Assembly: GCF_988242995.1 (NCBI RefSeq)
Contig: NZ_OZ547043.1
DNA length: 64,000 nt
Reading direction: 5' to 3' (one strand)
A model generated the notes under the pieces. It was not told the origin of the DNA. It made no database searches and saw nothing but the letters and a program-made list of their open reading frames with translations. Positions within the stretch are counted from its first letter, which is position 1. Each line of letters starts with the position of its first letter. Both the position numbers and the translations under genes were made by a program. This document shows, one piece after another, positions 34,279 to 34,665 of this stretch.

Positions 34279-34665
34279 ATGCGTAAAAGCCTGTTAGCTA
34301 TTCTTGCAGTCTCCTCGTTGGTATTCAGTTCGGCGTCGTTTGCCGCTGATCTTGAAGACAATATGGAAACCCTCAACGACAATTTAAAAGTGGTCGAAAA
34401 AGCCGATAACGCGGTGCAAGTCAAAGACGCGTTAACGAAGATGCGCGCCGCAGCGCTGGATGCGCAAAAAGCGACGCCGCCGAAGCTCGAAGGCAAATCA
34501 CCGGACAGCCCGGAAATGAAAGACTTCCGCCACGGTTTCGATATTCTGGTCGGTCAGATTGACGACGCGCTGAAGCTGGCAAATGAAGGTAAAGTAAAAG
34601 AAGCGCAGGCTGCCGCAGAGCAACTGAAAACGACCCGCAACGCCTATCACCAGAAGTATCGTTAA
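34279..34665 (+). CDS. cybC: Soluble cytochrome b562 (intact precursor with signal peptide)
   Basis: 128-aa ORF: signal peptide [22 protein letters not shown] followed by mature [15 protein letters not shown]...NAYHQKYR, the four-helix-bundle haem protein. Confidence 0.9.

Follow-up and report, generated by a model that had tools for sequence, protein, structure and literature searches.

The window analysed here, a 64,000-nucleotide stretch of contig NZ_OZ547043.1 (assembly GCF_988242995.1), carries an open reading frame for the soluble cytochrome b562 precursor, cybC. Both the open reading frame list and the sequence itself place its start at an ATG and its stop at a TAA (34663-34665). Upstream of the gene lie mpl, yjgA and pmbA (tldE), and downstream lie nrdG and nrdD in converging orientation. 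This order, mpl-yjgA-pmbA-cybC-...-nrdG-nrdD, is the one found in annotated K-12, B and other genomes. Two further elements sit on either side of cybC, an imperfect palindrome in the spacer that follows pmbA and a relBE-like module in front of nrdG (Table 1). A 120-amino-acid open reading frame on the minus strand (34134-34496) overlaps cybC and was regarded as a side effect of the cybC reading frame.

Table 1. Features of the cybC locus, in window coordinates
Feature	Position	Strand	Description and basis
ERIC-like imperfect palindrome	34134-34259	.	126 nt, in the pmbA-cybC spacer; inverted arms 34134-34159 and 34234-34259
Shine-Dalgarno-like element	34266-34272	+	AAGGAAG, ending 6 nt 5′ of the cybC ATG; read from the sequence
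Bases missing from K-12, kept in the window	34272-34297	+	26 bp, GTGAGCAATGCGTAAAAGCCTGTTAG; pairwise DNA alignment with MG1655
cybC coding sequence, soluble cytochrome b562 precursor	34279-34665	+	128 codons plus TAA; open reading frame list, Pfam, NCBIfam
Predicted signal peptide	34279-34344	+	22 codons; basic n-region (R2, K3), hydrophobic core, S-F-A cleavage motif
Mature four-helix-bundle domain	34345-34662	+	106 residues; gapless match to 1apc/256b
Terminator-like hairpin 3′ of the cybC stop	34673-34698	+	11-bp stem, TTGGGCGGTGA and TTACCGCCCAA around the loop AACG, then CGCTTTCTTC; terminator scan
relB-like antitoxin gene	34857-35099	+	Pfam RelB; NCBIfam NF008412 equivalog, 130.1 bits (cutoff 96)
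relE-like toxin gene	35089-35379	+	Pfam ParE_toxin; E. coli RelE structures 4fxe/4v7k

The encoded protein matches the cytochrome b562 family at a level far above chance. The Pfam profile PF07361 (Cytochrom_B562) is covered from end to end (positions 1-102 of 102; E=2.5e-33, 115.2 bits, cutoff 30), as is the NCBIfam equivalog NF011632 for cytochrome b562 (1-127 of 127; 192.6 bits, cutoff 130). Residues 23-128 pair without gaps with positions 1-106 of the mature protein of known structure (PDB 1apc/256b, E=8e-63), and the full 128 residues align with a deposited precursor of the same length (9tmp_A). The original prediction had read this frame as a complete 128-amino-acid precursor comprising a signal peptide and the full mature sequence, and the extent of the frame, the full-length profile matches and the gapless structural match all bear that reading out.

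Residues 4-19 of the putative signal peptide have a mean Kyte-Doolittle hydropathy of +2.0, and the solved mature chains 1apc and 256b begin at precursor residue 23. These Sec-type features, together with the mature start of the solved chains, suggest that the leader (MRK... ASFA) is removed just ahead of ADL. The mature apo-protein has a predicted mass of 11,736 Da. Met7 (codon 29) and His102 (codon 124), in mature numbering, which from established structural knowledge we take to be the axial haem ligands of b562, are both present in the window protein and are invariant in all four alleles aligned.

The Shine-Dalgarno-like element is accompanied by no sigma-70 promoter-like site anywhere in positions 33900-35500, as judged by a consensus scan, and transcription of cybC may come from read-through out of pmbA or from a non-consensus promoter. 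On the 3′ side, the terminator-like hairpin with its T-rich tail follows the stop codon at a distance of 8 nt. This hairpin lies within a segment that takes the place of the K-12-type cybC-nrdG hairpin (see below).

Alignment of window positions 34090-34700 with K-12 MG1655 produced a single gap, a deletion of 26 bp on the K-12 side. The missing stretch runs from the last base of the Shine-Dalgarno-like element through the spacer and the start codon into codon 7, which loses its first base, so that codons 1-6 are gone entirely. No microhomology is visible at the ends of the deletion in this alignment. The claim that cybC is disrupted in K-12 is thus correct, and in the curated record NC_000913.3 the gene is likewise flagged as a pseudogene (b4236; positions 1689-2056 of the compared locus). 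The K-12 gene occupies the orthologous locus, with pmbA and nrdG as flanks and an ERIC-like element upstream, but has lost its start codon along with codons 1-6, and S122 and K125 adjoin its His ligand.

These two residues represent substitutions, A122S and Q125K in precursor numbering, that flank the His102 ligand in the K-12 allele and are absent from the window, B and VCSW5 alleles. They fall within positions 3520-3537 of the compared NZ_CP010438.1 locus, equivalent to 34642-34659 of the window, and may reflect drift after inactivation or an ancestral K-12 allele.

The deleted allele is annotated differently in K-12 assemblies processed by PGAP. In MG1655 NZ_CP010438.1, for example (3175-3540 of the compared locus), it appears as a 121-residue 'cytochrome b562' coding sequence, WP_023649327.1, whose start is an ATT codon and from which the n-region MRKSLLA is missing. 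Because PGAP labels the deleted allele as intact, any comparison of gene presence that relies on product names would overlook the K-12 lesion.

According to a 2026 paper (PMC13041623), Trower 1993 described a cybC disruption that blocks expression in K strains; our literature search for a primary account of the lesion returned this secondary citation only. Users of the Keio collection have employed cybC as a pseudogene control (PMC6945024), and expression of the gene is much higher in B REL606 than in MG1655 (PMC3446290).

The distribution of the deletion was assessed among complete E. coli genomes by using two probes. The first, 63 nt long, spans the K-12 junction in such a way that an intact genome can match no more than 63% of it; 355 of the 5426 genomes match it in full. 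Sixty-five of these 355 were sampled, in lists of 60 (obtained with a stringent E-value) and 5, and every one is a K-12 laboratory derivative; MG1655, C600, J53, DH5alpha, DH1, NCM3722, RR1 and ER strains are among them. The second probe, 69 nt that include the 26 bp, was scored with a minimum match length of 80% and detected an intact cybC 5′ end in 5068 of the 5426 genomes (about 93%). Together the deleted and intact classes account for 5423 genomes, which are all those with any probe match.

An intact cybC is therefore the species norm in E. coli, and the 26-bp deletion, judged from the 65 of 355 junction-positive genomes sampled, is a private marker of K-12. The presence of the 26 bp in the window upholds the proposal of a non-K-12 background. 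However, since intact 5′ ends are so common, an intact cybC says only that a genome is not K-12 and carries little information on lineage.

At least one genome has a lesion of a type other than that of K-12. In NZ_OY754853.1 (1-2810 of the compared locus), an IS66-family element (ISEc22-like, with tnpA, tnpB and a transposase gene) splits cybC after approximately codon 25. This is an independent inactivation of the gene.

The cybC of the window was compared with that of E. coli B (strain AS19). Both genes have 128 codons with no insertions or deletions between them, and the proteins are 98% identical, differing by I39V, A46V and D72G (B to window, precursor numbering); another six differences are synonymous. 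The b562 of E. coli B (PDB 256b/1apc, the parent of the BRIL fusion partner) shares with the window protein its locus, a 128-residue precursor and 106-residue mature form, the signal peptide and the Met7/His102 pair. It differs in having I39, A46 and D72 where the window has V, V and G, all of them conservative or polymorphic changes, and in B cybC is followed directly by nrdG without a relBE module. Residues 39, 46 and 72 are among seven positions that a proteomic study reported as naturally polymorphic in E. coli CybC (PMC6561927).

The window protein is 100% identical to RefSeq WP_001232253.1, which is annotated in both Ecol_316 and VCSW5. At the DNA level the window and VCSW5 genes differ by four synonymous and no non-synonymous changes. 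The predominance of synonymous change relative to both B and VCSW5 is consistent with purifying selection on the protein. In Ecol_316 both the ERIC-like element and the relBE module are found as in the window, while VCSW5 encodes the same protein but is without both flanking elements.

The original prediction had offered a B-like lineage as one possible source for this DNA, a suggestion that we reject. Besides the V39, V46 and G72 residues, the DNA flanking the gene from pmbA through cybC is only about 97.4% identical to that of B (96.4% to K-12), and the relBE module is absent from B. The cybC locus is closest instead to genomes of the Ecol_316 type, with 99.4% identity over 6.8 kb and 100% identity to Ecol_316 across window positions 34100-34860.

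On a larger scale, none of the complete E. coli genomes compared exceeds 98.8% identity to the 22 kb between window positions 24000 and 46000. The difference between this maximum and the 99.4% identity to Ecol_316 around cybC suggests a source lineage that is either under-sampled or locally mosaic.

The palindrome upstream of cybC is predicted to fold with an energy of -60.8 kcal/mol (z=-8.3). It forms part of the extra DNA that extends the pmbA-cybC spacer to 182 bp in the window, compared with 55 bp in VCSW5. K-12, B and the majority of E. coli carry the element at this site, but strains such as VCSW5 do not. Among the 5431 matching records, about 3880 contain a copy that is at least 90% identical to it, and another 1547 records have only distant copies with 60-80% identity. 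Related but diverged copies occur at a median of three per genome; within the 64-kb window no further copy was found.

The core of the palindrome agrees with the ERIC consensus at only 24 of 31 positions. The element is accordingly described as ERIC-like, a candidate ERIC. An Rfam scan of positions 33500-36200 returned a sole match, which aligns the palindrome over its full length with the Vibrio family V_AS5 at 24.6 bits. This score is below the gathering score of 96, and membership in V_AS5 was not accepted. Given its location in the putative leader region, the palindrome could affect the fate of the mRNA.

The 3′ flank is also variable. In place of the 44-bp cybC-nrdG spacer and hairpin shared by K-12, B and VCSW5, the window has a segment of approximately 0.7 kb (34675-35383) that carries the relBE module. 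This replacement extends as far as the stop codon of nrdG, which is TAG in the window and TGA in K-12. The relB-like and relE-like genes overlap by 11 nt, and the same pair is present in the RefSeq annotation of Ecol_316. The toxin matches E. coli RelE (4fxe) with E=1.4e-34, and matches to 4fxe/4v7k over residues 1-94 reach E of about 1e-35. No toxin-antitoxin genes are located beside cybC in E. coli B. The relBE segment was detected in 454 of the 5426 complete E. coli genomes, in every case on the chromosome.

Genomes with both the palindrome and the relBE module, with either one alone and with neither all occur. Because all four combinations exist, and because VCSW5 has the window protein without either element, neither flank is tied to the other or to the cybC allele in its assortment. 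Such variable flanks might alter the stability or termination of the cybC (or nrdG) mRNA and in this way produce lineage-specific expression of the periplasmic cytochrome, although we regard this as improbable.

One alternative is that the open reading frame, despite being intact, is effectively silent or impaired, owing to the ERIC-like palindrome, to the terminator replaced along with the relBE segment or to the substitutions in the allele. The lack of a promoter-like site near the gene fits with this explanation, as do the very stable hairpin in the putative leader and the rearrangement of the 3′ flank relative to K-12, B and VCSW5. However, E. coli B has this palindrome upstream of cybC as well and yet makes b562 abundantly, which disfavours this explanation, and copies at least 90% identical to the palindrome are carried by a majority of the records matched. 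The Shine-Dalgarno-like element, the ATG and the whole coding sequence have been kept, with changes that are mostly synonymous. D72G and the two valine substitutions may affect stability or redox potential, though other genomes are annotated with an identical protein. Also, the rearranged flank supplies a new hairpin terminator after the stop codon. We therefore consider a silent or impaired gene very unlikely.

A hidden frameshift, truncation or loss of a haem ligand, which would make cybC a pseudogene in the window as well, has a negligible chance of being correct and is refuted by the alignments: in codon-level comparison with B, K-12 and VCSW5, the reading frame proved neither shifted, interrupted by a stop nor shortened with respect to the B gene, the profiles are covered completely, both ligands are in place, and the 26 bp absent from K-12 are present.

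These observations leave us highly confident that the window carries a standard, intact cybC gene from the chromosome of a non-K-12 E. coli, at its conserved position between pmbA and nrdG. The b562 of E. coli B has been purified, crystallised and made from its native gene. B-lineage strains produce the native protein in haem-carrying form (PMC13041623), and a mass-spectrometric study of clinical isolates detected CybC in their periplasmic fractions (PMC6561927). With only three substitutions relative to the B protein, all at known polymorphic sites, the window protein is probably expressed, exported and loaded with haem in the same manner.

Specifically, translation from the ATG at 34279 would yield a precursor that is exported via the Sec pathway. 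Cleavage of the 22-residue signal peptide would then release a 106-residue chain that folds into a four-helix bundle in the periplasm. The mature protein would be expected to bind one non-covalent haem b via Met7 and His102 and to serve as a soluble carrier of single electrons. In calling this gene probably functional, we draw on the integrity of its sequence and on the experiments with other strains.

The b562 family, its structure, the K-12 lesion (in the literature since 1993) and the polymorphic sites are all already known. On the practical side, where cybC is intact the strain's native b562 can end up as a contaminant in preparations of anti-BRIL Fabs (PMC13041623). For discovery the gene matters very little, as the intact cybC in the window is the normal form of this gene in E. 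coli.
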